Of a stretch of DNA of 64,000 bases, positions 7,529 through 31,579 are shown piece by piece. A program made the translations under genes and the position numbers. How positions within the stretch are numbered: the first letter of the stretch is position 1; every line of letters begins with the position of its first letter. This stretch comes from an uncultured Verrucomicrobiae bacterium (GTDB lineage: Bacteria > Verrucomicrobiota > Verrucomicrobiia > Chthoniobacterales > Terrimicrobiaceae), in assembly GCA_963763735.1 (NCBI GenBank), contig CAVXQK010000012.1, positions 14,803 through 78,802 on the forward strand, given 5' to 3'. The notes beneath the pieces were generated by a model. The model was not told the origin of the DNA. It did not search any database and worked only from the letters and a program-made list of their open reading frames with translations.

Positions 7529-9988
7529 ATGTCTCTCACTTCCTCGATCGCCGGCTGCCGCTGCGACCGGCTGGACCTTCCGCAGAAGCCGCGCATTCCG
7601 GCCGGCCTGAGCGCGCTTCCCCGCCAGCTCGCGGGCTTTCCGGAGTTCCGTCTGGCGATGCTCCGGCAAATCCCGGCGCATCAGCTCCTGGACGCGGCGG
7701 AGATCCCAGCAACCCTGCAGCGTCCGCTCCGGGACTGGCGCGCGCGGGAGGGAAGCGACCTCGGCATCATGCTCGTGGAGATGTGGGCCTACGTGCTCGA
7801 CCTGCTCGCTTTCTACGAGGAACGGATCGCGAACGAGAGCTACCTCCCGACGGCGGTCCGACCCGCTTCCTTGCAGGAACTCGTTGCCCTGATCGGCTAC
7901 CTGCCGCGCCCGGCCGTCGGCGCCGAAGTAATGCTCGCGCTCGTTGCAGACACCGGCAAGGGGCTCATCCGGGTGCCGGCTGGCACGGGCTTCCGGTCCG
8001 GTGCGTTTGCGGGCGAGAAGCCACAAGTTTTCGAAGCCTCCGCGGACGGCACCGTCGATCCCGCTCTCAACGAATGGACCCTCGCGCCCATTGTCGGCGC
8101 CGCTTTCGATGGACGCTTCACGATGCCTCCCGGCGACGCCCGGCTGGCTCGCGACGACGTCGCGCTTTTCACCTGGGGCAATTCATCGGCGTCGGCGCGC
8201 GTCCAAAGCGTGACCCCGATGCGACGGCTCGATGGCAAAACCTACCTCGATCTTGCGCTCCTACCGCCCCCGGCCATCGGCGCCGGTGTTGCGCCCCGAG
8301 ACATCTCGGTTTTCAAGCCGACAGCACTCTCCGGCGTCTCGGAGGTGACGAGCTCCCGGTCCACCATTCAACTCGACTCGCTTCAGGGCGGTATTCGCGT
8401 GGGAGATCGCCTTGTCATCGAGCGGGATGACGGCCTGCTTCCGTTCCAGGTGACCGATTTGGGTCCGGGCACGCTGTATCTCGACTCGACATCGGCGGCT
8501 GCGCGCGCCGCGCAACTCTCTCCGCAGGCGACCCTTCTCGGCTTTGCCACGCCGAATCTCAATTCGATATCCCCTCGCGCAGTCCGTCCTTTTTTGCAGG
8601 TGACCAGGCTGACGGTGAGTCCCGCGTTGCCGGCGGGCTGGGCGAGCCCGGTGAGCAAGCTGACCGTCCATTTTGGCATGGTTCGGGCCGGCTCGCTCAC
8701 GGCGCCGGCGAAGACCCGGCTGGGTGTCGACGATCTCCTTCCGAGCGCGACCTTCGTGATGCCGGTCGAGCCTCCGATGCTCGAGCCGCCCGGCACCGTG
8801 CTGCTGGCCGGCGCAGACGGCGGTGGCGCGAATCTCACCGCCAGCGTGTCGATCGATCCGGACGCGGGAACGGGCTCGCTTACGCCTCAGCAGAGCGCCG
8901 CACCATTCGCCACGGATTTGCGTACGCCCGTCACCGTCTACGGAAATCTCATCCACGCCACGCGCGGCGAATCCGTGCCGAACGAAGTGCTTGGCAGCGG
9001 AGACGCCACGATTGCATTCCAATCCTTCAAGCTGAAGAAAAAGCCGCTCACCTATCTTACCGACGAGTCGGCGCCCAATGGCCGGCGCTCGACGCTGGCG
9101 GTGCGGGTGAACGCGATTCTTTGGAGCGAGGTGGGGAGTTTCTTCGGGACCGGCCCCCAGGACGAAGTCTACATCGTGCGGCAAAACGAGGACGGCGAAA
9201 GCATCGTCACGTTTGGCGACGGCCAGACCGGCGCACGGCTCCCGAGCGGAGTAAAGAACGTGACCGCAACCTACCGGTTCGGCGCGGGCGCGGCGAAGCC
9301 ACCGGCAAATCTGATCACGCAAATGTCTCGGCCCGTGCCGGGCATTCGTCGCGTGGTGAATCCCGTCGGTGCCGGCGGCGGAGCGGATGCCGATGCTCCG
9401 AAGGACCTCCAACGCAACGCGCCCGAGAGCGCCCTGCTGTTGGGTCGCGCAGTCTCGCTGCCGGATTTCGAGGCTCTCGCCCGGGAGTTTGGCGGAGTGG
9501 TGAACGCCCGGGCATCATGGGCCTGGGATGCCATGATGCAGCGCGCAGTCGTGAAAATCTGGTTCATCTCCGACGGCGGTTCGATCGCTCCGGACCTGCG
9601 GAAGTTTCTCCTCGGGCAGTCCGATCCAAACACGCCTGTCGCCGTGAGCGAGGCGATCCCGCTGGATTCGAGCCTGACAGTCGATCTGATCGTCGATCCG
9701 CGATTCCGCTCGGATGACGTCGAGCAGGCCGTCGTCACGGCCCTGACCGAACCGGAAAAGGGGCTGCTCGCGTTGACGAATATTCCAATAGGACTTCCGC
9801 TGTTTCGCAGCGCCATCCTCGCGCAGATTCACGCCGTCCCGGGAGTCACCTCGGTGCGGGCGCTTCGGTTCAATGGAACGGAAGCGCCCTTTGGCATCGT
9901 GGCGGGCGAGGGTGAGTATCACAACTTTCTGTCCGGCCTCGTCGTCGGCAACACCGCGGCGGGAGACGTTCTGTTTTCCGCCACCTGA
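7529..9988 (+). CDS. second baseplate J-like / large baseplate wedge protein (819 aa)
   Basis: 'TFGDGQTGARLPSG...YRFGAGAAKPPANL...DLQRNAPESALLLGRAVSLPDFEALAREF' parallels the J-like signature of the preceding gene. Confidence 0.7.
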   Translation: MSLTSSIAGCRCDRLDLPQKPRIPAGLSALPRQLAGFPEFRLAMLRQIPAHQLLDAAEIPATLQRPLRDWRAREGSDLGIMLVEMWAYVLDLLAFYEERIANESYLPTAVRPASLQELVALIGYLPRPAVGAEVMLALVADTGKGLIRVPAGTGFRSGAFAGEKPQVFEASADGTVDPALNEWTLAPIVGAAFDGRFTMPPGDARLARDDVALFTWGNSSASARVQSVTPMRRLDGKTYLDLALLPPPAIGAGVAPRDISVFKPTALSGVSEVTSSRSTIQLDSLQGGIRVGDRLVIERDDGLLPFQVTDLGPGTLYLDSTSAAARAAQLSPQATLLGFATPNLNSISPRAVRPFLQVTRLTVSPALPAGWASPVSKLTVHFGMVRAGSLTAPAKTRLGVDDLLPSATFVMPVEPPMLEPPGTVLLAGADGGGANLTASVSIDPDAGTGSLTPQQSAAPFATDLRTPVTVYGNLIHATRGESVPNEVLGSGDATIAFQSFKLKKKPLTYLTDESAPNGRRSTLAVRVNAILWSEVGSFFGTGPQDEVYIVRQNEDGESIVTFGDGQTGARLPSGVKNVTATYRFGAGAAKPPANLITQMSRPVPGIRRVVNPVGAGGGADADAPKDLQRNAPESALLLGRAVSLPDFEALAREFGGVVNARASWAWDAMMQRAVVKIWFISDGGSIAPDLRKFLLGQSDPNTPVAVSEAIPLDSSLTVDLIVDPRFRSDDVEQAVVTALTEPEKGLLALTNIPIGLPLFRSAILAQIHAVPGVTSVRALRFNGTEAPFGIVAGEGEYHNFLSGLVVGNTAAGDVLFSAT

Positions 9989-9994
9989 GAGTTT

Positions 9995-12157
9995 ATGGCT
10001 GAAGACGTCCTCACGATCATCAACCCGGCTCGCGACGAGTTTGAGCGTTACTACGCCGAGAAGCTTTGGGAATGGATTCCGCCCATCTACCGGCAGGAGG
10101 ACGGGCTGGCGGAGCAGCCCCATGTGCTGCGCGCGCTGGTGGAGATTCTGGCCTGTCAGGCTGCGGTCGCGCGGCGAAGCACGGACCGGCTCTGGGACGA
10201 CTCATTCATCCAGACCTGCGACGATTGGGCGGTCCCCTATATCGGCGCGCTGCTCGGCACGCGGCTTTTAGGCAGCGCCAACCGGCGCGGAAGGCGCGCG
10301 GACGTGGCGAAGACGGTATTCTACCGGCGAAGGAAGGGGACGCCGGTCGTGATGGAGGCGCTCATCCAGGACATCACGGGTTGGGAAGGCGCGGTCGTCG
10401 AAAGTTTCAAACGCCTCGGGCGCGCGCGACACCGCCTCGATCCGGAGCCGGGGCCGTTCGCGGGAGCCATCACGCAGTCGCCGCCTGGCGGCACCGCCAA
10501 TCTTCGCCGCGCAAGGGTCAGTGAAATCCTCGACGGGGCCTTCGACGATCTTGCGCACACGGCCGATTTTCGGCGGCTGCGCGGGTTCCGCGGCCGCTAC
10601 AACATTCCCAAACTCAACTTTCATCTCTATCGGCTGGGTGTTTTCGAGGTGAATCTGGCGACGCCCTTCGACTTCGGGAACGGGCGGTTTTCCATCGATC
10701 CCTCGGGGCGTGATGTGGCGCTCTTTCGTCCGAGCCGCCGCGGGCCGGACGTTGAGTGGACGCCGGTGGAGGAATGGCAGCTCCCGGCTGCGATCCCGTG
10801 CCGCCTTTTCAACGTCGAAAAAGATCACCTGGTTCCGGACGCGCTCGCCGTTACGATCGGAACGGGGCCGCAGGATCCGCCCCTCGATGAAACGCAGCTC
10901 CACGCCGCCAATCTTTCGACGTGGACGCTGCCGTCCGGCCTGCACTTCGAGGCGGTGGTCGATCCGCACACGGCGCGGCTCGTGCTCGTAAACCCGCTCG
11001 CCGGCAACGACCGGCTGTTCATTCCCCGGTATCACTACGGCTTTTCCGCTCGTCTTGGTGCGGGCACTTACGACCGCTCGGCGAGCGTTCGCACGGAAGC
11101 AGTGACGTCGTTTCCCGACGGCGGCAACGCGCCCGGAACCGTGACCGGCTTCGCTTTGCCGGTCGACGGCACCCACAGTTTCGTGAACAGCAAGACGTAT
11201 CGCCCCGACACGCCGCCCGGCAACCGGCTCTCGGGCATCGAGGACCTCTGGCTTCAAGGGGACGACCGGGAGCGTCCGTATGTTTCGCTCGTCCCGGGCA
11301 ATAACGCGCGCGAATGGATCGTCGAGGCCGCGCCCAAGGTGGCCGACGAGGACCAACGCTGTCTCACGCTGGAAGGACTGTGGATCGGCTTGAACCCGGA
11401 CGGCATACCGGACGAGGTGCTGGCAAACCCGGATGACGCCTGCACCCCCGTCGAAGCGGTGCTCGCCATCAACGGTGAGTTCGACCGCGTCGTGATTCGG
11501 CATTGCACGCTCGATCCGGGGGGGGAACGCGCACGGCTCGTCGCGGGTACGTGCACGCCCATCGCGTCCGTGGTGCTCGAAATCCGCGGGCAGGTGAAAG
11601 AGCTCGTCATCGAGTCCTCGATTGTCGGTGCGATTCGCGAAGTGACCGACGACACCGACCCGTGCTCGGTCGGGCGCATCGTCATTCGCGACTCCGTCGT
11701 GCAAAGCCTGCTGCCGGACATACCCGCCATCGCCACGCGAGTCGGCGCGGTCGAGCTCGAGCGGGTGACGGTTTTTGGCGGCGTCACGGTCAATCGCCTG
11801 GATGCCAGCGAATCGCTTATCCAGGGGCTTGTGCTCGTTCTCGACAATCAGCACGGCTGCTTCCGCTTCAGCGCAACGGACCGGCATCCCGACCGTCGCC
11901 TGCCGCGCCAGTTCGAATCCCATCTGTTTGCACCCGGGGTCCCGAATCACTTCTTCGCCTCCCGGCGTTTTGGTGATGCGTCCTTCGCGCAACTCAGCAA
12001 AACCGCACCCGACGCGATCCTGACGGGCGCGGAGAACGGATCGGAAATTGGCGCCTTCGGCGGGCTGCTGAATTCCATCAAGTCCCGCGATCTCGAACGA
12101 AAGGTCATCGAGTTCATGCCGTTTGGCCTCATCCCGCAGTTCATTTTCGAAACCTAA
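9995..12157 (+). CDS. P2 gpI-like phage tail/baseplate protein (720 aa)
   Basis: N-terminus 'LWEWIPPIYRQEDG...LRALVEILACQ...CDDWAVPYIGALLG' resembles tail protein I family. Position after the J-like genes fits. Confidence 0.65.
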   Translation: MAEDVLTIINPARDEFERYYAEKLWEWIPPIYRQEDGLAEQPHVLRALVEILACQAAVARRSTDRLWDDSFIQTCDDWAVPYIGALLGTRLLGSANRRGRRADVAKTVFYRRRKGTPVVMEALIQDITGWEGAVVESFKRLGRARHRLDPEPGPFAGAITQSPPGGTANLRRARVSEILDGAFDDLAHTADFRRLRGFRGRYNIPKLNFHLYRLGVFEVNLATPFDFGNGRFSIDPSGRDVALFRPSRRGPDVEWTPVEEWQLPAAIPCRLFNVEKDHLVPDALAVTIGTGPQDPPLDETQLHAANLSTWTLPSGLHFEAVVDPHTARLVLVNPLAGNDRLFIPRYHYGFSARLGAGTYDRSASVRTEAVTSFPDGGNAPGTVTGFALPVDGTHSFVNSKTYRPDTPPGNRLSGIEDLWLQGDDRERPYVSLVPGNNAREWIVEAAPKVADEDQRCLTLEGLWIGLNPDGIPDEVLANPDDACTPVEAVLAINGEFDRVVIRHCTLDPGGERARLVAGTCTPIASVVLEIRGQVKELVIESSIVGAIREVTDDTDPCSVGRIVIRDSVVQSLLPDIPAIATRVGAVELERVTVFGGVTVNRLDASESLIQGLVLVLDNQHGCFRFSATDRHPDRRLPRQFESHLFAPGVPNHFFASRRFGDASFAQLSKTAPDAILTGAENGSEIGAFGGLLNSIKSRDLERKVIEFMPFGLIPQFIFET

Positions 12158-15820: not shown

Positions 15821-17311
15821 ATGGCCACCGAACGTATTCTCAACGACGACGAACTGAACGAGGAGATCGCGCAAATTCTCCCCGCCGCCGACCGCTTGCG
15901 ACTGGTCGCGCTCGACCGCACCCGGTCGCTCGCCGCGGCGAAAACGAAGAGCCTCCAGCGCGAGTTGCGGATCGTGCAGGTGCTCGCTCCAGACGACACC
16001 GCCAGCATTGCGGAGGCGGCGCGGCGAGTCGAGTCGCAGCAGCGATTCGAGAGCCTGGCGGCCGTCGAAATTCAACGCGGCGAGGTTGAGGCACCTGCGC
16101 GCAACCCAGCCGCTCTCGTTCTGTTCGGGCGGGTCGTCGACGGGAGGCGTATCGGGCAGGCCGGACTCGTCGTCAGCGCGACGGGTGCCGAAGGGCGCGC
16201 TCTCGTTTTCGGCTGCACGGATACGAACGGCAACTTTCGGCTCGACGTGCCGGCCAACCAACTCTCGAGTTCCAGCGCGCGGCCGGTCGTCACGTTACTC
16301 GTCAGCGATTCACAGCAGGCAATCCGGTACCGCGGCACCGAAGTCTTTCCGGTGGAAGGCAACAAGGTCATCTACCGAGAGATTGTTCTTGGAGACGAAC
16401 CCGGCAAGCCGACGCCCCAACCCCCACCGCCGGTATCCGAGCAAGTCCTCGTGCCCAACGTGGTTGGGGCGGAGCGCTCCACCGCGATCGCGGTGCTGAA
16501 ACGCACCGGTCTCCTGGCGGAGGAAAAAGCCGAGAAGGTCGATGACGACAAAGTGGGACTGGTCGTGGCGCAGGACCCGAAGCCCGGCACCTCGGCGCAA
16601 GCTGGCTCGGCGGTCGCGATTTCCGTCGGCATCGCCTCGGAAAGCGTTGTGGTTCCCGACGTGGTGGGTAGCGTTTTTGGCGAGGCCTCAGCCGCCCTCA
16701 AGCGAGTCCGGTTGTTGGTTGGCACGGTCGAACCGCCCAATCCCGGCGCCGATGCCCCCGTGCTCGACCAATCGCCAAAAGCCGGGTCTCAGGTCGCGCG
16801 CGGCTCGTTTGTGAACTTGAAACTCCAGCCGAAGGTCACCGAACTGCCGACGGTGGAAGTCCCCGATCTCACACGCCTGGCGCCGGACGAAGCCCGCGAA
16901 AAGCTCGAATCGCAGAAGTTGAAACTCGGCGTGGTTACGACCGCGCCAACGGCCGGCAACCAGGTCGGGCGCGTCCTCAGCCAAAATCCGAAAGCCGGGA
17001 GCCAGGTGGCCCCGCAAAGCGTGGTCGCAATCGTGATCGGCGAAAAGGAGGGTGACAGCCCGATACCGTCACGAACCGCCGCCGAGACGATCAAGCTCGT
17101 CGCCCGCGAGCCGGATTTCGAGAAGACCGGAGCCACCGAAGCGAAGCTGCTGCGAATCGCCGAAGAGCAGGGCCTGCAAAGCGAGAACGACCTGCAGAAA
17201 ATCGTCGACACCACCGAAGACGCCGAAGTGCGTGATCGCTTCAAATTGCGCAACCTCGACCAGGCCCGTGCCCTGAAGGAAATCCTGCTCCGCGTGATCA
17301 AACGTCGTTAA
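15821..17311 (+). CDS. PASTA-repeat protein (N-terminal coiled coil, carboxypeptidase-regulatory-like domain, 3 PASTA repeats), last gene of the structural operon
   Basis: Three repeats of the type 'VPNVVG...A...L...GL......V.....G.V..Q.P..G..V..GS.V.I'. 'GRVVDGRRIGQAGLVVSA...TDTNGNFRLDV'. Confidence 0.7.
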   Translation: MATERILNDDELNEEIAQILPAADRLRLVALDRTRSLAAAKTKSLQRELRIVQVLAPDDTASIAEAARRVESQQRFESLAAVEIQRGEVEAPARNPAALVLFGRVVDGRRIGQAGLVVSATGAEGRALVFGCTDTNGNFRLDVPANQLSSSSARPVVTLLVSDSQQAIRYRGTEVFPVEGNKVIYREIVLGDEPGKPTPQPPPPVSEQVLVPNVVGAERSTAIAVLKRTGLLAEEKAEKVDDDKVGLVVAQDPKPGTSAQAGSAVAISVGIASESVVVPDVVGSVFGEASAALKRVRLLVGTVEPPNPGADAPVLDQSPKAGSQVARGSFVNLKLQPKVTELPTVEVPDLTRLAPDEAREKLESQKLKLGVVTTAPTAGNQVGRVLSQNPKAGSQVAPQSVVAIVIGEKEGDSPIPSRTAAETIKLVAREPDFEKTGATEAKLLRIAEEQGLQSENDLQKIVDTTEDAEVRDRFKLRNLDQARALKEILLRVIKRR

Positions 17312-17506: not shown

Positions 17507-19160
17507 ATGGAAATGCCAGCGTTGATCGCGCATCAAAGTAAGAGGAGGCCTGCGCAATCGCAGCACCCTCACGCAAGGTCCGCGGCAACCCGGGGAATGG
17601 TGCGGGCCGGCGTTTCTCTTGCGCCGTTCGTGCAGGCGAAACTTCGGGTTGGCACGCCGAACGACCGCTTCGAGCAGGAAGCCGATCGAGTCGCGGAGAG
17701 AGTTATGCGCATGCCGGATACCGCAAGTGCCCCGGCTCACCCGGCCGGTTATGCCGGGGACGCCGTACAGCGGAAATGCGCGGCCTGCGCCAGCGGGCAC
17801 GGGCTTTGCACCGAGTGCGCCGAAGAGGAGCGCCTCCAAACTAAACCTGTCGTGGGCGCGAGCAACAACGCCTTGGAACGAGGAGCGGATCGGGTCGCCA
17901 ATTCAGCGAATGCCACGCCATCCACCGTCGTCGGCGGGATGCCACTGTCCCTCCCGGGATTTTCCGAAGGATCGATCAAGCAGACGAATTCGGCTTTAGC
18001 CGGCGTGGAGCGGACGTTAGCCGGTGCCGGTCGACCTTTGGATCCGCCGCTCAGGCGGGACATGGAGAGGCGCTTCGGCCATGACTTTTCCCCGGTCCGG
18101 GTGTATTTCGGCGGCATTGCTGGACAATCAGCCAGAGACTTGAATGCCGACGCCTACACGGTTGGGCAAAGCATTGTGTTTGGTGTTGATCCGCCCGCGC
18201 TGGAATCGACTGGCGGGCGAAAGCTGCTCGCGCACGAGTTGACGCATGTGGTGCAGCAAACGAAGGCATCCGCGCCGTCGATCGTGCAGCGCCAGGCAGG
18301 CGGAGGCGGACCCGCAGGCGGGCCTCCTGCGGCCGGAGCCCCGTCGTTGTCGGTGAAATACAAGGGTTGTGGAAAGGCGCCGTTCACCCAGCCGGTGGTC
18401 GAGGCGGCTGCTCTCGCGGCATACAATAAGGTCGTCGGCAGCAATTGCATAAAAAGCACGGAGCTACGGGACGAGATATTGAGCGAATTCGCCGACCTGA
18501 CGATCGATTGCGAGCAGGGGAGCGGCAGTTCGCCCTGCGGCATGGCCTGGCGGTTCCTAAGCCACACGGTGAACATCTATCCCAAGGCGCTGGCCGGCGG
18601 CAGTTGCGGGCCTTTGGAATCGACCATCCTGCACGAAGTCGTGCACCTTACGGAATTGCGGCTCATCGAGCACGGCGATCTGGCAGACGCCTGCGAAGCT
18701 TCGTGTTTTGGCTGGGGGAGCGGTGACCCGGCGAAGTGCGACGAAAAGACGCTCGTGCTCCATGGACCTCGCGTTGCCCTGGGTGCGAGCCTGGCCGGCG
18801 GCCGTGGTCCTTTCGGCCGGATCGGCTATGAGGTTCTCAGGAGCTGGACGGGAACCGCGTTTTCTCTGGGCCTTCATTTGGATGTGCCGCTGACCGACCG
18901 CGACTCATTTGTGCGAGCGGGGCTCGAGGTAGGGTCGAACTTCCAGCTCCTCGGTTCCCTCTACGGCAGGCTGTACGGCGGCTTGTCGGTGCCCTTGCCG
19001 CCTGGCGGTGCTTTGCCCGACACAACGGTTGGCGCTGGTCTCGGCTTCGATTTTGGCCGAACGCAGCTGGAAGTTCTTTACGAAGTGCTGAACGTTCAGT
19101 CCAGGGACGTGCGGACCCAACAAGCTCCTGGTTGGGCTGGGCTTTCGATTCGGAAAATAA
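17507..19160 (+). CDS. DUF4157 (eCIS core domain) protein 1 with a second HExxH module; 3' end probably frameshifted
   Basis: 'VQAKLRVGTPNDRFEQEADRVAERVM', 'RRDMERRFGHDFSPVRVY', 'LLAHELTHVVQQ', second 'ILHEVVHLTE'. The frame-2 ORF runs to 19360. However, frame 3 from about 19110 gives 'NKLLVGLGFRFGK*' (stop 19158-19160), similar to the protein-5 terminus. An alternative start is ATG 17597. Confidence 0.75.
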
Positions 19161-19202
19161 CTGACGGTTCCCTCGTACGAACCCCAAGGAGGCAGGCATC
19201 GA

Positions 19203-21117
19203 ATGAAGCTTGGCATCTGTCCGCATCGCGCGCCGCGCGAAGCCTCCATGCGCCCGCGATCTCGCAAAGCGGAATCGCCCGGCCGCCGCGCCGCAGGATC
19301 GTCGTCCAGCGCCTTGCATCCCGTCATCCAAGCCAGATTGAGGACGCGCCTTCCGAGTGATTGTGAACGGGAGTCGGATCGGTTTTCTCAAGATGGGAGG
19401 CGCCCGACAGACCCGGGCCTGCGACGGCCCCGCTCCTCCGGCGGAGAGTGCGCGAGGAGTCGAAACGAGGGCAGGGAGCACGTCGGGCCCGTCCCCGACG
19501 GCAAGGCCGCGAACTGGCCGAAGAGGCGCTGGCTGCCGAGCGGATCGAAGAAGTCAACGGGCAGGTGGAATTCGGAATCAGGAAAGTTGCGGGCGGCATG
19601 CCCATGCAGAAATCCGCACGGGTTATTTTCGAGCCACGCTTCGGTCGCGACTTCAGCCACGTGCGCCTCCACACGAACCCCGCCGCGATATCTCTTGCAC
19701 GGGCGCTTCGCGCCGCGGCCTTTACCTGCGGCTCCGATATTTTCTTCAATGCCGGAGAGTACGCGCCCAACAGCGTGGCCGGCCGGGGATTGCTCGCGCA
19801 CGAGCTGGCGCACACGATTCAGCAAGCGACCGGAGATGTGCGCGTCCAGCGGGCAATCATCCCCTACCGGCCAATCACCTGGGCCGACTTTCTGGCTGCT
19901 CCTCCGGCCGGTCAGAACCCGGCCGAGGGCGCCGGAATTCTTTCCAGATTCGACCTGATTCCGTCCTACACCCCGGTGATCACAGCCAAGCCAACGAAAA
20001 AGCCGTGCCGCGCGGGCCGGATTCGCGCCGAGGAAGTTGAAGCGACCGCCGCGCCCGATCCCGCCGATTTCAACAAGCCCGAGGCGGTCATGGATCAGGA
20101 CCAGTCGTGGGCGCTGCCGCGCTACACGGGCAACGGCAACGACTTTTGCGCGAGCGAGGTGACCCGGTGCGAAAACCAGTTCGACAGCGTCCGGGCCTCG
20201 GTGCGGACAAATTGCGAGCGGAGCGCCAGCGGAATGCGAGCAAGCTTTCGATCGGGGAGAAAAGGCCTTTGGGATCGCCCTTGGCCGCGATTCCGTTCGG
20301 GTGACCCGCAAAGCCGATTGCCGAACCACGTTTCTGACAAGGTGCCAGGAGATAACTTCCAAGGCGGCAACGGTGTCGATCGGCTCAACCATCGTCCGAA
20401 CGAAGGAGGATTGCCAGCGTACCTACTTTCGCCAATGTCTGACGAGCGAGGTCACGAGCGGGCACGCCTTTTGAGGCATGAGCAGGGACATTTCGACATC
20501 ACCAACGTCATGGCACGAAATGCCCGGGAGAGCATCAAACTAAAGGCTGCGGGTCTGTCGGTGAAGGAAACGGGCTGCGGTGAGGACGCCGCCCGCGACG
20601 CCGCCAGAGGAACCTACGACAGCACTGTGAAGTCGGTGCTGCGACAGTTGAGCAATGATTGGCTGGCCGCCAAGGATCGGGCGCAACAGGACTATGACGG
20701 CCAAACCATGCACAGCTCGAACGCGGCCAAACAACGGGCTTGGGAGACGGACATTGCGGCTGGATTAAAGGCTTACGTCCCTGCGAATGCTCCCGTCCCC
20801 GCGGCGGCACCGGCCCCAGCCGCCGGGAAGTCGTCCGGCCGCGCCGACTCCGGCCAACCCTCCGGCGAATCCTCCGCCGGTCGCGGCTCCGAAGCGCCCG
20901 GGAGAGCCGCGGTGACTTATCGGCCTCGTTCGATGTCACTTTGCTCTTCTCGAATCGTCCGACTTCCCTCCCGCCACCCGGCGACTCGAAGCAATTCGTG
21001 GCGCTCCCGATCCACGTTGAGCGGATAGTCCGAGTCATGAAACTGGCCTCGCTCCAGGAGTCGAAAGTGAAAGCGATAAATGGTGGGAAACACTGCAAGC
21101 GGACGACCGGGGCGTGA
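19203..21117 (+). pseudogene. DUF4157 (eCIS core domain) protein 2, disrupted by several frame changes; DUF922-like HEQGH module
   Basis: AAGGAGG lies 10 nt upstream of ATG 19203. The leader 'HPVIQARLRTRLPSDCERESDR' is in frame 3. The core 'FEPRFGRDFSHVRLH...LLAHELAHTIQQ' is in frame 2. The segment 'CEQAFDRGEKAFGIALGRDSVRVTRKADCRTTFLTRCQEI...' (about 20235-20470) is in frame 3. 'LLRHEQGHFDI' is back in frame 2. The tail is in frame 1. Confidence 0.65.
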
Positions 21118-21144
21118 TGCGTCGGAAAATTCAAGCGTTGCAAA

Positions 21145-21438
21145 ATGCAAACGCCGGTCACCGTCAATCAGACACCGGCAAGCCCGCTGCGAAATATTGA
21201 AGCCACGCGATTTTCCGCGATGAAGGCGATCGGCCTGGGCACCTCGTTCTCGTTCCCCCTGGGCGAAGGAAAATTCCTGACCATCGGGCACATGCTCTAC
21301 CTGCCGGGCACGGGCAATACGCCTGTCCGGACGGACCTCCTTTTGCCGCCTTACGTATCGGATCGGGACGAGAAAGTGCGCCTGGTTTCCGGGTTCCAAT
21401 TCAGCGGTTCGTTTGACGAGACCAAGTGGTTCAAATGA
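21145..21438 (+). CDS. hypothetical 97-aa protein (or former C-terminal part of DUF4157 protein 2)
   Basis: Strong G/C preference at third codon positions and non-biased amino-acid composition. It is in the same frame as the 20930-21117 coding-like segment, separated by a single TGA. Confidence 0.45.
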   Translation: MQTPVTVNQTPASPLRNIEATRFSAMKAIGLGTSFSFPLGEGKFLTIGHMLYLPGTGNTPVRTDLLLPPYVSDRDEKVRLVSGFQFSGSFDETKWFK

Positions 21439-21595
21439 ACTAGTCCTGGCCATCGCATTGATCCAAATCGCGCCACTCGAATCCGCTCGCCGTCTGAGCC
21501 CCTTTCCGCAATGAAATGCGTGCCGCTGCAAAACCGTAAGCCCCGCTTCCCGCTGTCCACCTCGAACCGCACGCACTCGCGAGCCGCCGCGTTCG

Positions 21596-23221
21596 ATGGC
21601 TCCGTCCGCGCTCTCGCATCCGATCATCCAGGCCAGGCTCCGCGTCGGCGCTCCGAATGATCGCTTCGAGCAGGAGGCCGATCGTGTTGCGGAGAGAGTC
21701 ATGCGCATGCCGGATACCGAAAGCGCGCCAGCTCTCCCGGCCGGTATCGCGGACGACGCCGTGCAGCGGAAATGCGCGGCCTGCTCCAGCGGCGGGCACC
21801 TCTGCCCGGAGTGCGCGGAGGAGGAGGAGAAAGTGCGTCGGAAGCCGGGCGACCATCAATTGCTTCAGGCCAGAGAATCGCCGGGAGCCGTGCCGCGACT
21901 GAGCCGCGGAGTCGAAGCCAGGATTCGTGGATTTCAGGGAGGTGGCCGGCCTTTACCGCAGGGCGAACGAGCCTTTTTCGAGCCGCGTCTGGGGGCGGAT
22001 TTTTCGCAGGTTCGCATCCACACCAATACGCCGGCTGCCGAGACCGCCGCCGCGATTCAGGCGCGAGCCTTCACGACAGGCTCGGACATTGTCTTCGGGG
22101 CGGGTGAATATCAGGGGGAGCCGACTTCCCGCAGCCGGGAATTGCTGGCGCATGAACTTGTCCACGTCGTCCAGCAGGGAGCCGCGCGCGGCGGAGCCTC
22201 CCCGGGGGTGATCCAGCGCAGGAAGCCGCCCGCTGCGGTTCCCACGCAGCTTGTCTCCCCAATCCTGGCCGGAGATGCGATCCTCGAGGATGTGATAAAC
22301 GATCGATCCGTTCTCCGGCAGGGGAGCAAGGGAGACGCGGTTCGCCGTGTGCAGGAGGCTCTCCTGAGCGAGGGTTATCCGCTGCCGAAATTCGGCGCCG
22401 ACGGCATTTTCGGACCCGAGACGGCGAAGGCGGTGCGCATGTTCCAGCAGCGATGGCGGCTCGACGTGGACGGTATCGTTGGCGATCAGACTTTGGGGCT
22501 GCTGGACAGCCATCTCTTCAACAAGGGCGTGCTCCAGTTTGGAGAAGAACGGGGCGGTCTCATCGGCGGCATTGCCAAGCGACTCGCCACCGCCGGGCTG
22601 GACATCAGGGAGGCCGACTTTGCGAGAACCGACTGTCCCGCGGCCAACAAGGCGGAGCGGCTCACCGCGTGCATCCAGCCGGTGGTCATCGCCGAGGACG
22701 ACGGCTCGAATCCCACCGCGTCGCCCCCGTTCGAGGTGGCTCAGCGCATCTGGGAGAAATGCTGCATCAACTACTCCGTGCTTCCCACTCAAACGGTGAA
22801 CAAGTCGGACTTCAAGGTGCTCGACGAATCTCCGAACAACATACCCACGGCCGAGGAGACTGCTCTGTTTACGGCGGCAGGAGCGAGCCGGTGCATCCAG
22901 GTGTTCGTGCCGGAGACCTTCGAGCAGGGCGGCGTCATCAGCAAGGCGATCTCAGGTGGCGGCGCAACGTACGACGGTGGCGCCGCCAACGCCAAGGTCG
23001 TAGTGGTGGAGGGCACGGTGTCGGAAGTCGTCGCACACGAGCTCGGGCACGCCACCGGTTTCGGCGGGCACGATGGAAACCCGACTGTCATGAAGCCGAC
23101 CGGCGCCCATAACGTACCGAATTCCACTGCCGTCTCCAAGGACGTTTGCACACGCGCCCGCACCGGCGGGACTCTGGCCACAACCGGCGGAACCGCCGAT
23201 TGCTGCATGGATCCACGCTAA
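21596..23221 (+). CDS. DUF4157 (eCIS core domain) protein 3 with peptidoglycan-binding domain and C-terminal metzincin-like HExxH module
   Basis: 'IIQARLRVGAPNDRFEQEADRVAERVM', 'FFEPRLGADFSQVRIH', 'LLAHELVHVVQQ'. PG_binding_1-like 'GSKGDAVRRVQEALLSEGYPLPKFGADGIFGPETAKAVRMFQQRWRLDVDGIVGDQT'. 'VVAHELGHATGFGGHDGNPTVMKP'. Confidence 0.8.
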   Translation: MAPSALSHPIIQARLRVGAPNDRFEQEADRVAERVMRMPDTESAPALPAGIADDAVQRKCAACSSGGHLCPECAEEEEKVRRKPGDHQLLQARESPGAVPRLSRGVEARIRGFQGGGRPLPQGERAFFEPRLGADFSQVRIHTNTPAAETAAAIQARAFTTGSDIVFGAGEYQGEPTSRSRELLAHELVHVVQQGAARGGASPGVIQRRKPPAAVPTQLVSPILAGDAILEDVINDRSVLRQGSKGDAVRRVQEALLSEGYPLPKFGADGIFGPETAKAVRMFQQRWRLDVDGIVGDQTLGLLDSHLFNKGVLQFGEERGGLIGGIAKRLATAGLDIREADFARTDCPAANKAERLTACIQPVVIAEDDGSNPTASPPFEVAQRIWEKCCINYSVLPTQTVNKSDFKVLDESPNNIPTAEETALFTAAGASRCIQVFVPETFEQGGVISKAISGGGATYDGGAANAKVVVVEGTVSEVVAHELGHATGFGGHDGNPTVMKPTGAHNVPNSTAVSKDVCTRARTGGTLATTGGTADCCMDPR

Positions 23222-23339
23222 AGGCGATCGCCGGAGTCGTCGCGCCGCGCCACCCCTTGCGTTGCTTCGTCGGCTTGCCGCCCCCGATTTGTTACCATCG
23301 CCGGAGCGGCCCACTTCGAGGCGCGCCATTGAACGTGCC

Positions 23340-26300
23340 ATGCCCGTTACCCACGCCCGCGTCCTGAGAGTGGACGCCCGTTCGCCAACGCGGCCGGGTC
23401 GACAGCGCGCCCCGGCCAGTCACGAACGGAACGAGTCGCTTCATCCGGTCGTCCGGGCGAAACTTCGCGTCGGCGCGCGGAACGACCCTTACGAGCAGGA
23501 AGCCGATCGTGTGGCCGGCGAGGTGATGCGGAGGCCGGATGCTTCGAAGAACGCGGCGGCCGACTCCTGTCCCGTGCAGGCGGATCCGGGCGCCGACCGC
23601 CCCCTAACGGAACTGGGTGAGGATCTTGCCTCTTCCCAAAACCAGCGTCTGGACCCCACCACCCGGACATTCATGGAATCCCGCTTCGGCCACGACTTCG
23701 GCCGGGTGCGGCTGCATGCGGACGAAAGCGCCGCCGCGGCGGCGCGCAGCCTGCATGCCCGGGCGTTTGCGGTGGGGCGGGATATTTTCTTCGGTGCCGG
23801 CCAGCACGCGACGGAACGTGCCGATGGGCGGCGGTTGCTCGCTCACGAGTTGACGCACGTGCTGCAGCAGACCGGGCGCCTCGGGCGCCCGGCGATGGCG
23901 CCACGAGCCATTCAGCGCCAGCCGGTTGAGGAGGCACCCCCAGCGGCCGAGGAGGAGCAGGAGTCGTCGGAAGAGATTGACGAGGAGGCCGGATCCACAA
24001 ACGAAATCGAGGCGCTCGCGGCCGACGCCCTGGCCGTCGGGCGCCAGAATGCCCCCGAAGTGCTCGCGAAAATTGCCGCCTTCAATCCGCTCCCGGAGGC
24101 GGTTGCCCGGCTAGACGGGGACGATGACGCCCTCGGACATCTCCTGAAGGTGCTCGGACCCGACGCCTGGCGGCCGGAGAACCGCAAAAGCCTGCTTGCC
24201 ATCCTGCCGTTGCGTACCGCCAAGCGCAACGTCGAGGCCATCCAGAACGAGGTCGACACGGGCCTGCTCAAACTCGACTTAGGCGTGAGCGCGGACGAGG
24301 CGCACCTGGCCTACGAAGTTTTCAAGGCCATGAGTGAAGCCGATCGCGCGCGGTTCCTGCAGACTCCCGAAGGACGGCAGGCATTTGAAAAGGTGGGCGA
24401 AAGAGCCAGCTCGGAGCTCCGGATCTCGCGGGAGTTCGGGTTCTACGATGCCGATGTCGAGGCCCTCCTGGCCGAGCTCGAAAAGCTGGAAACCTGGAGC
24501 GAAGACCAGCGGGGCTGGTTGCGCACGGTCTTGGCGATGATTGTTCAGGGCGGTCACGCCGGAGACCCGCGCGTGGTGCAATTCGTCCGGCACAATTGGG
24601 AGCTCGATCCGGAGTTTTTCGCCGGGCTGGGATTTACCGGGCAGGGAGAAATCACCCCCGAAGAATTGCACGATACGCCGAATCCCCGCTGGCTCGGGTG
24701 GTTCACGAAGGTTGGCTTGACGGGCCTCTGGGCCGACGCCCCTGGAACCATCCAACTCGGCCTGCAATTCGTGGGAGGCAAACGAAGCCACGTCGAGGGC
24801 GTGCCTGTGGCCAGTCTGCCGTTGGGTTCTTTGCTTCGCGGCCTCGGGGGATCGCTGTCCGGCATCGACCTCGAGGAGATTCCTGGCATCGAGGATTCGG
24901 GTCTCGCCACTGTCTCGATCGATAAGCGGGAAGGCTTGTTCATTCTGGACGTCACGGCGGCCGCGATTCCAACGGTCGATCTGACGGGAAAAGGGGAAGC
25001 GGGCGCGACGCTCACGGTGACCGCGATGAACGGCAGCTTCGGCGATCTTCATGTCGAGGCGCGCTGGCCCGCCGAGGAGAATCCGACCCAACTCCCCGAT
25101 TTGCGGGTGCGGGTCGGCTGGCTCGGCCTGAGCACCGTCGTTCTTTCTTCCGGAAATCTGCTCGTCGGAGCGGATCACCTCCGGTTGCAGAATCTGGAGT
25201 TCGACGCCTCCCTCTCCGCCGCAAGCGAAAACGGCCGGTTCCGGATGAAGCAGTTCGTCGGAAATCTTCAAAGCCAGCTCGCCGCGGTCATTTCCGTCGT
25301 CCAGAGCGCGCTTTTCGCCGTGGTGACGACCGGATTGGGGCAGCAGCAATCGCCCGACGAAACTGAGGTGCGCGATGCCGCCTGGTTTACGAACGTGTTG
25401 CGCGAAACAATGGCGACCGAGTTCGACGACGCCCTTCTGAGTCACCTGAGCGTAGGGTCGCTGGCCGCCGAGAATGTCGTTTTCGCCAGTGGCGAGTCTC
25501 TTGACCGGGTCGCAACCTCCCTCGATCTGACCATTGCGGCCGGTCCCCGGGCGCTGGCGAGCCTCGAGATGGCCCGGATCGAAGAGGGGGCGGCGGATCG
25601 CGACCTCACTCCAGAGGAAAAAATGAGGTTGGACGAACTGATGCGGGTCGAGGCGTCCGATCCGACGGAGGCTCGCGAGCGCATCGCAGCGATGGGCATG
25701 GATCCGGATGCCGTGGAGTTGCGCCTTAAACTGGACAGCCCGGACAGCGAAGAGGCGCTCTCGGTTGCCGGCATGAACATACCGGGCGTGGTGCAGTCCC
25801 CGGGCACGATTTCCCCGGACCGGGCCACGATCGAGCTTCGGTTTCCGGGAGAGAGCGTTCAGATTCCACCCGGCGCCGATTCGGATGATCAGGGACGCAT
25901 CCTGTTCACCCTGGAGCTCGATGCGCCCGGCACGCTCCAGACGTCGCGCGATCTCGGGGTCGCCGGTCTGCCGCCGCTTGGCCCGATCACGGTTGAAGGC
26001 GCGACGGGCGAAGCCATCGTCCGCGAAGGCGGCGTCGTGAGCCTCGAGGTTGTCCTGCCGAGGGTGGGTTTTGAAGGCGTGCGCTCGGCGATCACGGTCG
26101 ACGCGCAGGAAGGCGTCGCGCAGGGCGTCCACCTTGTCGCCGACCTGGTAATGGACCCGACTCGCCGGCTCGGAATCCTGCAAATTGACAATTGTGCCGT
26201 CTTTGTCGAAGCCGTGACGGCGAAGGAGGTCGTCGTGGAGCGCCCAGGGGCATGGAGCGTGCAGGTTTTCGATCCTGTTCTCAACGGGCTGAAGCTCACG

Positions 26301-28733
26301 GCGGGACTCATCGACGGGAAGCTGGTGGCAGAGACGCTGCACGTCGGCCCCGGTCAGGTCTCCGGACTCGAGGCCTCACTCGGGACCTTGCTCAAGGCGA
26401 GTTCCCGGGAGACGTTGAGCTTCGGGGCCATCGATATCGAGGAGATCGTGCCCTACAAGAGACACGGGTTTACGATCTCGGACCTGGATGCGAATCAGGT
26501 GCGGGTGGAGGCCGGCGACCAGTCCGTTCGCGTCGTGCGCTTCGACAGCAAGGAAGTCGAAGGCGAGCTGGGGCTCGATCTCGAGACCGGAGAGTTCCAG
26601 GGCGGCGAGCTTTCGATCGCGGGCGGAAGCATGGATCTCGGCGCTCTCGATTTCGATTTCCCGTGGGGCGGAGTCACTGCCCGATCCGCGACCCTGCCGT
26701 CGTTCTCGGCTACCGCCAGGGCCACTGTCGAGAATCTGGGGGCGGGCGACGCGACCGAGTCGCTCGGTGTCACCATCGAGGCGGTCGATGCGCCGGTGGT
26801 CGCAGCGGAGGGCATCGGCTTCGAGATCCCGACCGTGGGTGTTCGCGGTCGGTTGGACAGCCAGCCGGGTATTCTCGAGGGGCTGGCGATTCGCGACGTC
26901 GGCCTGACCCTGGACGCGAAGGGCATCACGACGAAGGGTGGAACGGTCACTGCCGACCGCACGCGATTGACGGAACTCGAGACGTGGGTGCGGGATGTCG
27001 CCTTTGCGCGAACCTCGGCGAGCACTGGAAAACTGAGCTTCCAATTTTTCTCCGACGGCACCGGCGGACAGTTTCGGGTCGAGGATCTGGAAGTCGATTC
27101 GAACGGCTGGGTGCAGGTGAAGAACGGTCAGAGGGGAGCCTTCGTGCTGGAGGCCTTCACGGCCGACGCTGTCGAGGGCGCCGTCACGAAAACGGGTGTC
27201 GAGGCGAATGTTCCCGCCGGAAGCCTCGATCTTGGTCCACTCGACTTCACATATGCCGGGGTCCACGTGAAATGCACCGGTGCCTCGGCGCCCGACGTCC
27301 TGCTGAAGGTGCGAGCGGCGGCGGGCAAGGCGCCCTCCGGCGGCGCGACTCCGTTGCAGATCACCCTCGAGCAAGCGGAGGCGCCGCTTGTGCATGTCGA
27401 GGGACTGGAATTTGATCTCCTGAGGCTCGGCGTGCATGGGTCGCTGCTGGATCATCCTGGCGTGCTCGAAGGCGTGACCCTCGCCGGGATCGAGGCGGTG
27501 CTCACGCCGCAGGGCTTCACTCTCGAAGACGGAACCGTGACGATCAATCACACCCAGGCCGGCGGCGCGAAAGTGCAGGTGGCGAATCTGCTGTCCGGAA
27601 GGGCCAGCGCAGGCACGGGCGCCGTGACAGTCCAGTTCTTCAGCGACCAGCAGGTAAAGTTTGGCGCCAAGGACATTACCGTGGAGGCAGATGGAAATGT
27701 GACGATTGCGACCGGCAATCCAGGCAGGTTCGTGCTCGTTGCGGGATCTGTCCGGACGATCGAAGGCGAACTGAGTCCGGAAGGTATCGAGGGGAGCGCG
27801 CGGGGAATCCTGCTGGGGCCCGGCACCTATGACGACGGCAACCTGCAGATCAACTTTCAGATTATGAAGGTCGACGCCGCGTTTTCGAAGGGAGCACTTG
27901 CCCTGGACGCTTATCGTCTCCTTTCCCCGCCACTCCTCGCGGCAATGGAAGCCAGAGGCATCGGCACCCTTCTTGGAATCGACCTCGAGTCGGCTACGAT
28001 TCTCATTCGAGACGTGTGGTCGCTGCCAGGGGCCGGCAACCCCTTGGATCCGAGCCGCCTGGAAGGTTTCAAGGCGCTCGCCCGGGGTGCGAGCGGCGAA
28101 CTCTCCGGCAGGGTCGTCACCGACGAGGATGCGGCTTACGCCAATCTCGAAGCGACCGTGACGGACGGCCTGGCCAGCGGCCGGCTTTTCGACACGTTCT
28201 TTTCGTCTCCGATTCCAGCTCCGGATCCCATTCCCTTTCAGTGGGACCTTGTGACCCTGCTCGACTCGGCGACGTTGGGAAAAGCCTTCGCGGATAAATT
28301 GAGTGGAAGGGTCGCTCCGCAACCGGCCGGCGCCCCGAGCATGGCGGAAGTCCTGTTGGTGCGCGTGCTGCAGAAGACCGAGTTTCGGGACATCAACGGC
28401 CATCTGGAAGTGCGGCTCGAGACCATTCCCATCGGGACGCTCGGCTACCTGCGCGCGGCCCGGCAGAATGCGCCTCAGGTGTCATTGGTTCTTTCCGGAA
28501 ACACGGCGAGAGATCTCCAGGCCGGCTTCTCCCTCGGCGCGCTCAGCCTCGATACCGTGGTGTGGAATTTGTTTGTGTCCTCCGCGCAAGGGGTGGTGAT
28601 CGATCAGGGGCAGGTTCGGGTCACTTTCGACGGCCTCATCCCGCGAAGCGTCAGCGGCACCATCCAAAAGGGGCACATCGACGCGCTGAAGCTCTTCGGG
28701 CCGCCGCAGGCAGCCACCGCGGGCGGGCACTAG
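23340..28733 (+). CDS. giant DUF4157 (eCIS core domain) protein 4 (about 1800 aa) with repeat-rich C-terminal region of unknown function
   Basis: 'VVRAKLRVGARNDPYEQEADRVAGEVM', 'FMESRFGHDFGRVRLH', 'LLAHELTHVLQQ'. A single uninterrupted ORF (the longest version starts at 23262). Contains internal repeats of about 195 aa. Confidence 0.8.
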   Translation: MPVTHARVLRVDARSPTRPGRQRAPASHERNESLHPVVRAKLRVGARNDPYEQEADRVAGEVMRRPDASKNAAADSCPVQADPGADRPLTELGEDLASSQNQRLDPTTRTFMESRFGHDFGRVRLHADESAAAAARSLHARAFAVGRDIFFGAGQHATERADGRRLLAHELTHVLQQTGRLGRPAMAPRAIQRQPVEEAPPAAEEEQESSEEIDEEAGSTNEIEALAADALAVGRQNAPEVLAKIAAFNPLPEAVARLDGDDDALGHLLKVLGPDAWRPENRKSLLAILPLRTAKRNVEAIQNEVDTGLLKLDLGVSADEAHLAYEVFKAMSEADRARFLQTPEGRQAFEKVGERASSELRISREFGFYDADVEALLAELEKLETWSEDQRGWLRTVLAMIVQGGHAGDPRVVQFVRHNWELDPEFFAGLGFTGQGEITPEELHDTPNPRWLGWFTKVGLTGLWADAPGTIQLGLQFVGGKRSHVEGVPVASLPLGSLLRGLGGSLSGIDLEEIPGIEDSGLATVSIDKREGLFILDVTAAAIPTVDLTGKGEAGATLTVTAMNGSFGDLHVEARWPAEENPTQLPDLRVRVGWLGLSTVVLSSGNLLVGADHLRLQNLEFDASLSAASENGRFRMKQFVGNLQSQLAAVISVVQSALFAVVTTGLGQQQSPDETEVRDAAWFTNVLRETMATEFDDALLSHLSVGSLAAENVVFASGESLDRVATSLDLTIAAGPRALASLEMARIEEGAADRDLTPEEKMRLDELMRVEASDPTEARERIAAMGMDPDAVELRLKLDSPDSEEALSVAGMNIPGVVQSPGTISPDRATIELRFPGESVQIPPGADSDDQGRILFTLELDAPGTLQTSRDLGVAGLPPLGPITVEGATGEAIVREGGVVSLEVVLPRVGFEGVRSAITVDAQEGVAQGVHLVADLVMDPTRRLGILQIDNCAVFVEAVTAKEVVVERPGAWSVQVFDPVLNGLKLTAGLIDGKLVAETLHVGPGQVSGLEASLGTLLKASSRETLSFGAIDIEEIVPYKRHGFTISDLDANQVRVEAGDQSVRVVRFDSKEVEGELGLDLETGEFQGGELSIAGGSMDLGALDFDFPWGGVTARSATLPSFSATARATVENLGAGDATESLGVTIEAVDAPVVAAEGIGFEIPTVGVRGRLDSQPGILEGLAIRDVGLTLDAKGITTKGGTVTADRTRLTELETWVRDVAFARTSASTGKLSFQFFSDGTGGQFRVEDLEVDSNGWVQVKNGQRGAFVLEAFTADAVEGAVTKTGVEANVPAGSLDLGPLDFTYAGVHVKCTGASAPDVLLKVRAAAGKAPSGGATPLQITLEQAEAPLVHVEGLEFDLLRLGVHGSLLDHPGVLEGVTLAGIEAVLTPQGFTLEDGTVTINHTQAGGAKVQVANLLSGRASAGTGAVTVQFFSDQQVKFGAKDITVEADGNVTIATGNPGRFVLVAGSVRTIEGELSPEGIEGSARGILLGPGTYDDGNLQINFQIMKVDAAFSKGALALDAYRLLSPPLLAAMEARGIGTLLGIDLESATILIRDVWSLPGAGNPLDPSRLEGFKALARGASGELSGRVVTDEDAAYANLEATVTDGLASGRLFDTFFSSPIPAPDPIPFQWDLVTLLDSATLGKAFADKLSGRVAPQPAGAPSMAEVLLVRVLQKTEFRDINGHLEVRLETIPIGTLGYLRAARQNAPQVSLVLSGNTARDLQAGFSLGALSLDTVVWNLFVSSAQGVVIDQGQVRVTFDGLIPRSVSGTIQKGHIDALKLFGPPQAATAGGH
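26040..27850 (+). repeat. protein-level tandem repeats (about 590 nt / 195 aa per unit, at least two clear units, probably three to four) inside DUF4157 protein 4
   Basis: Anchor motifs 'MDLGALDFDFPWGGV' (about 26630) and 'LDLGPLDFTYAGVHV' (about 27225). Parallel segments 'EAVDAPVVAAEGIGFEIPTVGVRGRLDSQPGILEGLAIRDVGL' and 'EQAEAPLVHVEGLEFDLLRLGVHGSLLDHPGVLEGVTLAGIEA'. Confidence 0.6.
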
Positions 28734-28748
28734 CAAAATGCGTGGCGC

Positions 28749-31219: not shown

Positions 31220-31470
31220 CAGAAGTCACTTTCTATGTCACGGCCCCAGCCTTTCGAGCGGGGAGCAATCTGAAACTCCAGATCAAGGGCGGAGAGGACA
31301 GCCAGCAGGGTCTCAATCCTGGTCGCCGAATTGCCGGTCTCAATCAAGGAAATGGTTTCCTGGCGCAGGCCGACCTTGTCGCCGAGCTGCTGCTGGCTGA
31401 GGGAGTGTCGCTTGCGGGCACGCCGGACGAGGGCGCCAATTTGCCTGGGATCGCGGGCCGGATCATTCAT
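31219..31470 (-). CDS. hipB: HipB-type XRE-family HTH antitoxin
   Basis: 'IGALVRRARKRHSLSQQQLGDKVGLRQETISLIETGN' HTH. ATG at 31470 (the longest ORF starts at 31548). Translationally coupled to hipA. Confidence 0.85.
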   Translation of the reverse strand: MNDPARDPRQIGALVRRARKRHSLSQQQLGDKVGLRQETISLIETGNSATRIETLLAVLSALDLEFQIAPRSKGWGRDIESDF

Positions 31471-31477
31471 TTCCCCA

Positions 31478-31579
31478 TTATGCGCCAAATCCGATAAAGC
31501 GTCAATATCGGAAATGGCGCATAATATAGATATTATGTGGTAAATCACATAAACTCAGATTATCGCGTCCGGCGCATAA
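31478..31579. promoter_or_regulatory. hipBA promoter/operator region with nested palindromes
   Basis: Inverted repeat TTATGCGCCAAATCCGATA (31478-31496) / TATCGGAAATGGCGCATAA (31506-31524), 17 of 19 positions complementary. Palindrome ATAATAT-AG-ATATTAT (31521-31536). Third half-site GGCGCATAA at 31571-31579. Confidence 0.6.

Follow-up and report, generated by a model that had tools for sequence, protein, structure and literature searches.

A PASTA-repeat protein as the probable distal subunit of a two-part tail fiber in a verrucomicrobial contractile injection system

A 64,000-nucleotide stretch of DNA from an uncultured Verrucomicrobiae bacterium of the family Terrimicrobiaceae (GenBank assembly GCA_963763735.1, contig CAVXQK010000012.1, positions 14,803 to 78,802), referred to here as the window, carries an operon for an extracellular contractile injection system (eCIS). 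Directly after the tail fiber gene of this operon lies an open reading frame (ORF) for a 496-residue protein with three PASTA repeats. Judging from sequence comparison and structure prediction, this PASTA protein most likely forms the distal part of an eCIS fiber that is built from two separately encoded subunits. Its N-terminal module belongs to a family of proteins encoded next to nearly every long fiber of the same class, and in two other genomes the fiber and the PASTA protein form one polypeptide. An original prediction, made from the window alone, had described the gene as encoding a PASTA-repeat protein in the place of a tail fiber or targeting protein, and had offered two readings of its function: recognition of bacterial cell-wall material or tethering of the particle to the wall of its producer. 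The first of these is developed below, and the second is disfavored.

Linkage to the DUF6519 fiber

The DUF6519 domain, also called eBAP5, belongs to a set of five baseplate-anchor domains by which eCIS tail fibers are recognized at their N termini, and fibers of this class often carry beta-helix (pectin-lyase-like) regions toward their C-terminal ends (Nachmias et al., Nat Commun 2026, PMC12923769). In the window, a gene for a 1,223-residue protein with DUF6519 and a beta-helix is separated from the PASTA ORF by a gap of 26 nt. By the eBAP5 definition it is this upstream gene, and not the PASTA gene as first supposed, that occupies the tail-fiber slot. The broader idea, of a conserved eCIS component linked to targeting, holds for the PASTA protein. 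The reading frame of the partner is open from position 15779, overlapping the last codons of the fiber ORF. A programmed frameshift joining the two was considered and rejected, as no slippery heptamer is visible.

Full-length homologs of the PASTA protein were found down to 35% identity, and their loci share a conserved gene order. Two baseplate genes, for proteins of ~840 and ~715 residues, are followed by a DUF6519/beta-helix fiber of ~1,200 residues, then by the PASTA protein and finally by effectors with the eCIS_core domain (DUF4157). This succession of baseplate, fiber, partner, and effector genes persists at 35–42% identity. The arrangement extends to relatives that lack PASTA altogether: three minimal members of 200–230 residues (25–31% identity) sit 6–17 nt after genes for DUF6519/beta-helix proteins of ~1,130 residues, and the baseplate genes upstream of them are the same as those in the window.

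The linkage was also approached from the side of the fiber. A metagenome scan with an alignment of the PASTA protein gave no matches, and the fiber was used as bait instead. Eighty metagenomic loci with DUF6519 fibers (L018–L097) were fetched, and the sequence downstream was scanned with a profile of the N-terminal module of the PASTA protein (the N-module); among the loci with a fiber of at least 1,000 residues, 55 were assessable. A separate N-module gene lies just downstream of the fiber in 52 of these loci, one locus has the module fused to the fiber, and two have none, which means that a partner accompanies 53 of the 55 long fibers (~96%). The median distance from the fiber stop codon to the start of the N-module match is 60 nt. 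PASTA repeats are present in 4 of the 54 separately encoded partners, that is, the 52 found after long fibers and two found after short ones.

Three distant proteins that match only through their PASTA repeats (P0031, P0034, and P0035) have no eCIS context around them, and so PASTA similarity alone is no marker of eCIS proteins.

In two independent verrucomicrobial metagenome-assembled genomes, the fiber and the PASTA protein are encoded as a single intact ORF (L012, 1,836 residues; L013, 1,840 residues). Over their full length, the two fused ORFs share 75% identity in protein and 77% in DNA, and no stop or frame break is found in either across this 23% nucleotide divergence. Along the fusion, Pfam recognizes DUF6519 (residues 4–91), Beta_helix (928–1006), CarboxypepD_reg (1377–1424), and four PASTA repeats, after which comes a C-terminal helical domain; the fusion is collinear with the fiber and the PASTA protein of the window. 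A profile built solely from minimal members without PASTA matches the fusions at ~1307–1430 (E = 6e-22 and 3e-18). No fused PASTA was found among 120 DUF6519 fibers searched, which indicates that such fusions are rare. Natural fusions of this "Rosetta-stone" kind, together with near-obligate adjacency, are the chief grounds for regarding the PASTA protein as the distal part of the fiber, which most genomes produce as a chain of its own.

Architecture of the protein and the family of its N-terminal module

The three PASTA repeats named in the original prediction are borne out. PF03793 matches the ORF in three stretches with E = 3e-33 and a score of 114 bits (cut-off, 23.2), and when the PDB was searched with a profile of the family, the matches were confined to the PASTA part, with PknB (2kui, 8.7e-21) at the top. 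An AlphaFold2 (AF2) model of the protein has a mean pLDDT of 77, with values of 80–90 in the repeats. According to Foldseek, the modeled repeats resemble the PASTA structures of PknB, PrkC, and PBP2x, the top match being 5e12 (PknB, E = 3e-15), and PrkC 3py9 is matched with E = 3e-12. The nearest NCBIfam model is that of the Stk1/PknB-type PASTA region (NF033483, E = 4.7e-28); this match spans model positions 363–562 alone, which are the PASTA part, and its 98.6 bits stand against a full-length cut-off of 450. Pfam and NCBIfam show no kinase or transpeptidase domain in the ORF, in agreement with the claim that the protein has neither a kinase nor a penicillin-binding protein (PBP) domain.

Ahead of the repeats, the N-module is modeled as a helical hairpin (helices at residues 23–55 and 60–86) followed by a beta-sandwich (99–189) like that of transthyretin (TTR) and CarboxypepD_reg. 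The CarboxypepD_reg match in the ORF itself is sub-threshold (E = 0.046). The sandwich is nevertheless judged to be real because of the modeled strands, the transthyretin-like Foldseek matches, and the matches to PF13620 in 78 of the 138 family members that were scanned. The sandwich originally predicted at this place therefore stands as a fold, though the domain match in this protein falls short of the threshold. The coiled coil predicted before it stands only as two long helices, since these are modeled as a hairpin and their heptad character is weak.

A proline-rich linker joins the N-module to the repeats. It is predicted to be disordered, and a PPP motif within it is invariant across the close family. 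Beyond the repeats, the protein ends in a helical domain of ~80 residues that had been overlooked. No Pfam family matches this domain, and when it was modeled alone and compared with the PDB by Foldseek, no fold relative was found. Neither a signal peptide nor a transmembrane (TM) segment was found in the ORF, and its N terminus is acidic and hydrophilic. The top 19-residue Kyte–Doolittle window (1.71) falls within a strand of a PASTA repeat; across the family the median value is 0.92, with borderline hydrophobicity in one or two of 143 relatives.

An exhaustive phmmer/HMMER search with residues 1–200 of the PASTA ORF alone (E<1e-3) gave a family of 236 representative clusters, in which the match is always N-terminal. 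About half of the family consists of a stand-alone module of ~200 residues (190–260). The C-terminal additions recorded among the 138 scanned members are PASTA in 27, Big_1 in 14, SdrD_B in 13, PKD in 7, and HHH_5 in 4. By our own hidden Markov model (HMM), PASTA-bearing members have 1–6 repeats directly after the N-module, and about half of them also have the C-terminal helical domain. On this sequence evidence the family is best defined by the N-module, for which PHROGs and NCBIfam hold no curated name, and PASTA is an optional add-on. The closest relatives carry the names Terrimicrobiaceae or Chthoniobacterales (Verrucomicrobiota), and PASTA-type partners span three or more Gram-negative phyla. 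Among the carriers is a cultured strain, Desulforhabdus sp. TSK (WP_244082485.1), where the fiber–partner arrangement is likewise present.

Between verrucomicrobial groups, the last PASTA repeat and the C-terminal domain are the best-conserved parts of the protein, at 64–65% identity versus 37–45% elsewhere, and the C-terminal domain retains 65% identity to a distant verrucomicrobial group. The last repeat might have been a conserved type of its own, as PASTA4 is in StkP, but this was rejected: it holds within Verrucomicrobia alone, and no positional repeat type stands out family-wide. Frame-broken remnants of the last repeat and the C-terminal domain occur among the effector genes of two other loci (L002, 16479–16739 and 19973–20293; L008, 13227–13325), and none was found in the window. 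Because of these broken copies, the local conservation may reflect recombination; they suggest that the 3' end of the PASTA gene is a recombination joint for the exchange of effector cassettes.

Possible roles of the PASTA arm

The mechanism proposed as a whole, in which the PASTA protein is the distal subunit of a two-part fiber and its PASTA arm is an adhesin for ligands of the peptidoglycan (PG) type, is one we hold with somewhat better than even confidence. The N-module, with its hairpin and TTR-like sandwich, would dock on the C-terminal end of the DUF6519/beta-helix fiber. The proline-rich segment would serve as a hinge, and an arm of three PASTA repeats, arranged as beads on a string and capped by the helical domain, would project from the fiber tip. 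The protein would leave the producer only within the assembled and released particle and, as it has no export signal, would meet a cell wall only after that release. On target bacteria, the arm may then bind muropeptide, stem peptide, or lipid II, and the particle, held at the cell wall, would deliver its spike and its eCIS_core effectors there, several of which are PG binding.

A bacterial-wall target is indirectly supported by the repeats being of the serine/threonine protein kinase (STPK) type, by PASTA being the commonest single addition to the N-module, and by the effectors. Nine such loci supply 33 eCIS_core effectors, of which eight have PG-binding domains (four PG_binding_1 and four OmpA), and no recognizable eukaryote-directed domain was found in the set. 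Binding of muropeptides and lipid II is documented for STPK-type PASTA domains. By analogy the repeats of the PASTA protein may bind PG, and recognition of the bacterial wall is plausible.

Several points weigh against this mechanism. PASTA domains do not all bind PG, and that of PonA2 from M. tuberculosis is not known to do so. We know of no conserved PASTA ligand-binding motif that could be checked in the sequence. About half of the N-module family has no arm, which argues that the core function of the module is something other than PG binding. The alternative additions at the PASTA position are generic Ig-like or PKD spacers, and PG-binding domains are found in just a quarter of the effectors. 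Moreover, PG would not be exposed on a Gram-negative target.

Some of the same facts fit a role of the repeats as a rigid spacer or shaft only, setting reach in the manner of Ig or PKD repeats. The ligand would then be something other than PG, and the part that binds it would be either the C-terminal helical domain or the beta-helix in the main fiber. The presence of PKD, Big_1, SdrD_B, or Ig modules in the place of PASTA in other members, a copy number that ranges from 1 to 6, the lack of any positional repeat type conserved across the family, and the concentration of conservation within Verrucomicrobia in the C-terminal domain and last repeat are all as expected of a spacer. We nevertheless regard this role as unlikely. 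PASTA elsewhere is confined to PG-associated proteins, and it is the most frequent single addition here, with 27 of the 138 scanned members carrying it. The repeats also match the STPK type, whose ligand binding is documented, and PG-binding effectors co-occur in these loci.

The adjacency of the two genes could also be that of a fiber and its assembly chaperone or transient cap, of the Tfa or gp38 kind, which would aid the folding of the beta-helix fiber and have no function in the mature particle. The position directly downstream of the fiber (52 of 55 loci) and the size of the minimal members, ~200 residues as is typical of Tfa proteins, would suit such a role. The natural fusions, however, hold the partner covalently at the C terminus of the fiber, and an array of adhesin-type repeats would be purposeless on a chaperone that is released. 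With no similarity to Tfa or chaperone families in Pfam, PHROG, or NCBIfam either, we consider the chaperone role quite improbable.

A sensor function, in which binding of free muropeptides or of exposed wall material by the arm is passed through the fiber to the baseplate as a trigger for firing, has still less in its favor, and we give it only a slight chance. The PASTA arrays of STPKs do sense ligands, the fusions place the protein on the fiber, and in contractile tails the fiber is the signal input. Yet the disordered, proline-rich hinge between the N-module and the PASTA repeats would transmit a conformational change poorly, and half of the family is armless.

Tethering of the particle to the wall of its own producer, as in an anchored or intracellular contractile injection system (CIS), is the reading we find hardest to credit. 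It draws on the affinity of PASTA for wall material in other proteins, but the protein has neither a signal peptide nor a TM segment, so that in a diderm verrucomicrobium the periplasmic wall would be out of its reach until lysis. A full, bona fide fiber and a Pvc16_N cap are encoded at the locus, as is typical of released eCISs, and known anchored systems use membrane-inserted baseplate extensions. Two further roles were rejected outright: a tape measure, because the globular sandwich and PASTA domains are unfit for the lumen of the tube and the gene is placed after the fiber, and an effector, because the protein lacks the eCIS_core domain carried by all 33 neighboring effectors.

The reading as a distal fiber subunit with a PG-binding arm can be extended, tentatively, to a natural antibacterial eCIS with swappable adaptor subunits. 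PASTA tips of this kind might seek exposed PG or lipid II on Gram-positive neighbors, where wall-binding effectors of the metallopeptidase type would be delivered, and the N-module might be a plug-in connector of general use in retargeting particles of the eBAP5 class. If this is true, the receptor would be one that is not easily mutated away.

Operon setting and relation to known systems

The PASTA gene had been called the last structural gene of an eCIS operon, and the gene content of the window confirms that placement (Table 1). On the + strand, an AAA ATPase gene cut by the window start is followed by genes for a CIS tube-like protein, a gpD-like hub, a gpV spike, several small genes, and the baseplate genes; after these come the fiber, the PASTA ORF, and five eCIS_core genes. 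The upstream half of the operon is visible in a sister assembly (L007, 1–9743), which comes from the same or a near-identical organism and has an identical tube protein. This half encodes a sigma54 activator, a NusG paralog, the sheath, a gp19 tube protein, the Pvc16_N cap, and the ATPase. Taken together, the two halves bear out the eCIS context.

Table 1. Features of the eCIS operon in the window, with the evidence on which each rests
Feature	Position	Strand	Evidence
PASTA-bearing fiber-partner gene, 496 aa	15821..17311	+	ATG-initiated ORF; Pfam; full-length homologs at 35–90% identity with conserved synteny
Conserved N-module, residues 1–192	15821..16396	+	AF2 model, Foldseek, phmmer, PF13620 matches in relatives
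Proline-rich linker, residues 193–207	16397..16441	+	Alignment; AF2 pLDDT <50 at 192–204
Three PASTA repeats, residues 208–271, 275–337, 344–408	16442..17044	+	Pfam, PDB profile search, Foldseek, own repeat HMM, NCBIfam
C-terminal five- to six-helix domain, residues 418–496	17072..17308	+	AF2 model; without known relatives
Baseplate wedge genes (Baseplate_J-like, 819 aa; 720-aa protein) before the fiber	7529..12157	+	Pfam, PHROG; syntenic in all related loci
eCIS tail fiber, DUF6519 (eBAP5) baseplate anchor and right-handed beta-helix	12123..15794	+	Pfam; PMC12923769
Five tandem eCIS_core (DUF4157) effector genes	17507..29786	+	Pfam; HExxH-containing core in each

Some details of the operon deserve mention. 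The sigma54-dependent activator and the NusG paralog lie just before the sheath gene in L007, which hints at dedicated transcriptional or antitermination control. Relative to the window, the baseplate genes of L007 are interrupted by frameshifts, which probably stem from assembly indels. In the window, Baseplate_J/gp6-like wedge paralogs occur in tandem (4901–6862 and 7529–9988); they cross-match in tblastn and PHROGs, and the duplication is kept in all related loci. The fiber ORF is listed from a TTG codon at 12123, and the likely true start is the ATG at 12177 (Met19), where all homologs begin to align. A start at 12177 leaves a gap of 19 nt after the previous baseplate gene, versus an overlap with the TTG start.

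The downstream effectors vary among lineages. The third eCIS_core effector of the window (21596–23221) carries PG_binding_1 along with a weak, sub-threshold match to Reprolysin_5 (an M12 metallopeptidase family, E = 0.0033). The effector at 23262–28733 is a 1,823-residue giant with no other recognizable domain. Verrucomicrobial PASTA-type loci have three to five eCIS_core genes downstream of the partner, and most of the non-verrucomicrobial loci among L018–L097 have none within ~6 kb; effector placement or type thus differs between lineages. In other loci, TIR_2 and SIR2_2 genes are found directly after the fiber-partner gene (L001, 11977–12336; the locus of P0306), and these may be NAD-depleting effectors or adjacent defense genes. 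Beyond the effectors of the window lie a gene for a HipA-like toxin kinase (29918–31219) and tRNA-Ser(gga) (31806–31895), both on the - strand, where GC content drops from ~64% to ~57–61%. The eCIS island probably has its right-hand edge in this region (29918–31895).

The PASTA protein relates in different ways to several known systems. Like the catalogued eCIS fibers, it is encoded downstream of the baseplate genes, one gene beyond, directly after the eBAP5 fiber. It shares with eBAP5 fibers the same loci and a design of conserved anchor and swappable distal modules, and in L012 and L013 it is part of the same polypeptide. Unlike those fibers, the PASTA ORF has no match to DUF6519 (eBAP5 being the anchor tested), and the search strategy behind the catalogue would miss it. 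Its anchor is an unnamed N-module on a second chain that apparently docks on the fiber and not on the baseplate.

In the text of the fiber catalogue there is no mention of PASTA, of peptidoglycan, or of a partner encoded downstream (PMC12923769). In its supplementary Pfam table, some DUF6519 proteins have PASTA matches toward the C terminus, such as VUKD01000004.1_426 with two, and one DUF6519 protein with a late CarboxypepD_reg and HHH_5 looks like a fusion of fiber and partner (PMC12923769). No discussion of PASTA in any CIS was found in the literature searched. The claim that PASTA modules are unreported as CIS targeting domains is accurate as far as discussion goes, yet proteins combining DUF6519 and PASTA had already been tabulated.

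Kinases such as PknB, Stk1, PrkC, and StkP and the class B PBPs have the same PASTA fold and family, likewise in tandem, beads-on-a-string arrays of variable number. In contrast to them, the PASTA protein has no catalytic domain, TM anchor, or signal peptide; it is found in Gram-negative phyla within a phage-tail-like operon, and its repeats are combined with a putative fiber-docking module and a novel C-terminal helical domain. Uncultured tailed phages also encode proteins with PASTA (among them BFVD A0A6J5NDH4); these are probably virion associated, but the similarity is limited to the PASTA part.

A parallel in gene arrangement is offered by phages. T2 gp38 and the Tfa proteins of Mu and P2, which act as tip adhesins or in assembly, are encoded downstream of the fiber gene, and some of them stay on the tip for receptor binding. 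The PASTA protein resembles them in the position of its gene immediately downstream of the fiber and in belonging to a modular family that is part conserved and part variable. It differs in having no sequence or profile similarity to them, in the N-terminal location of its conserved part, and in a variable part made of adhesin-type repeats. With respect to anchored or cytoplasmic systems, such as the thylakoid-anchored tCIS and the Streptomyces CIS, the differences are the absence of a TM segment from the PASTA protein and the presence of a fiber, a Pvc16_N cap, and a sheath.

Modular fibers were already known. What these comparisons describe is, as predicted from sequence, an eCIS fiber apparatus with a previously unrecognized, near-universal partner subunit, which is PASTA-tipped in this organism. 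Whatever its ligand, a partner gene that follows ~96% of long DUF6519 fibers adds a component that is missing from the current fiber catalogue. A PASTA-bearing fiber subunit provides a concrete hypothesis of bacterial-wall targeting for environmental eCISs that is testable by simple binding assays. The two-piece, modular design of the fiber could also serve the retargeting of engineered injection systems.

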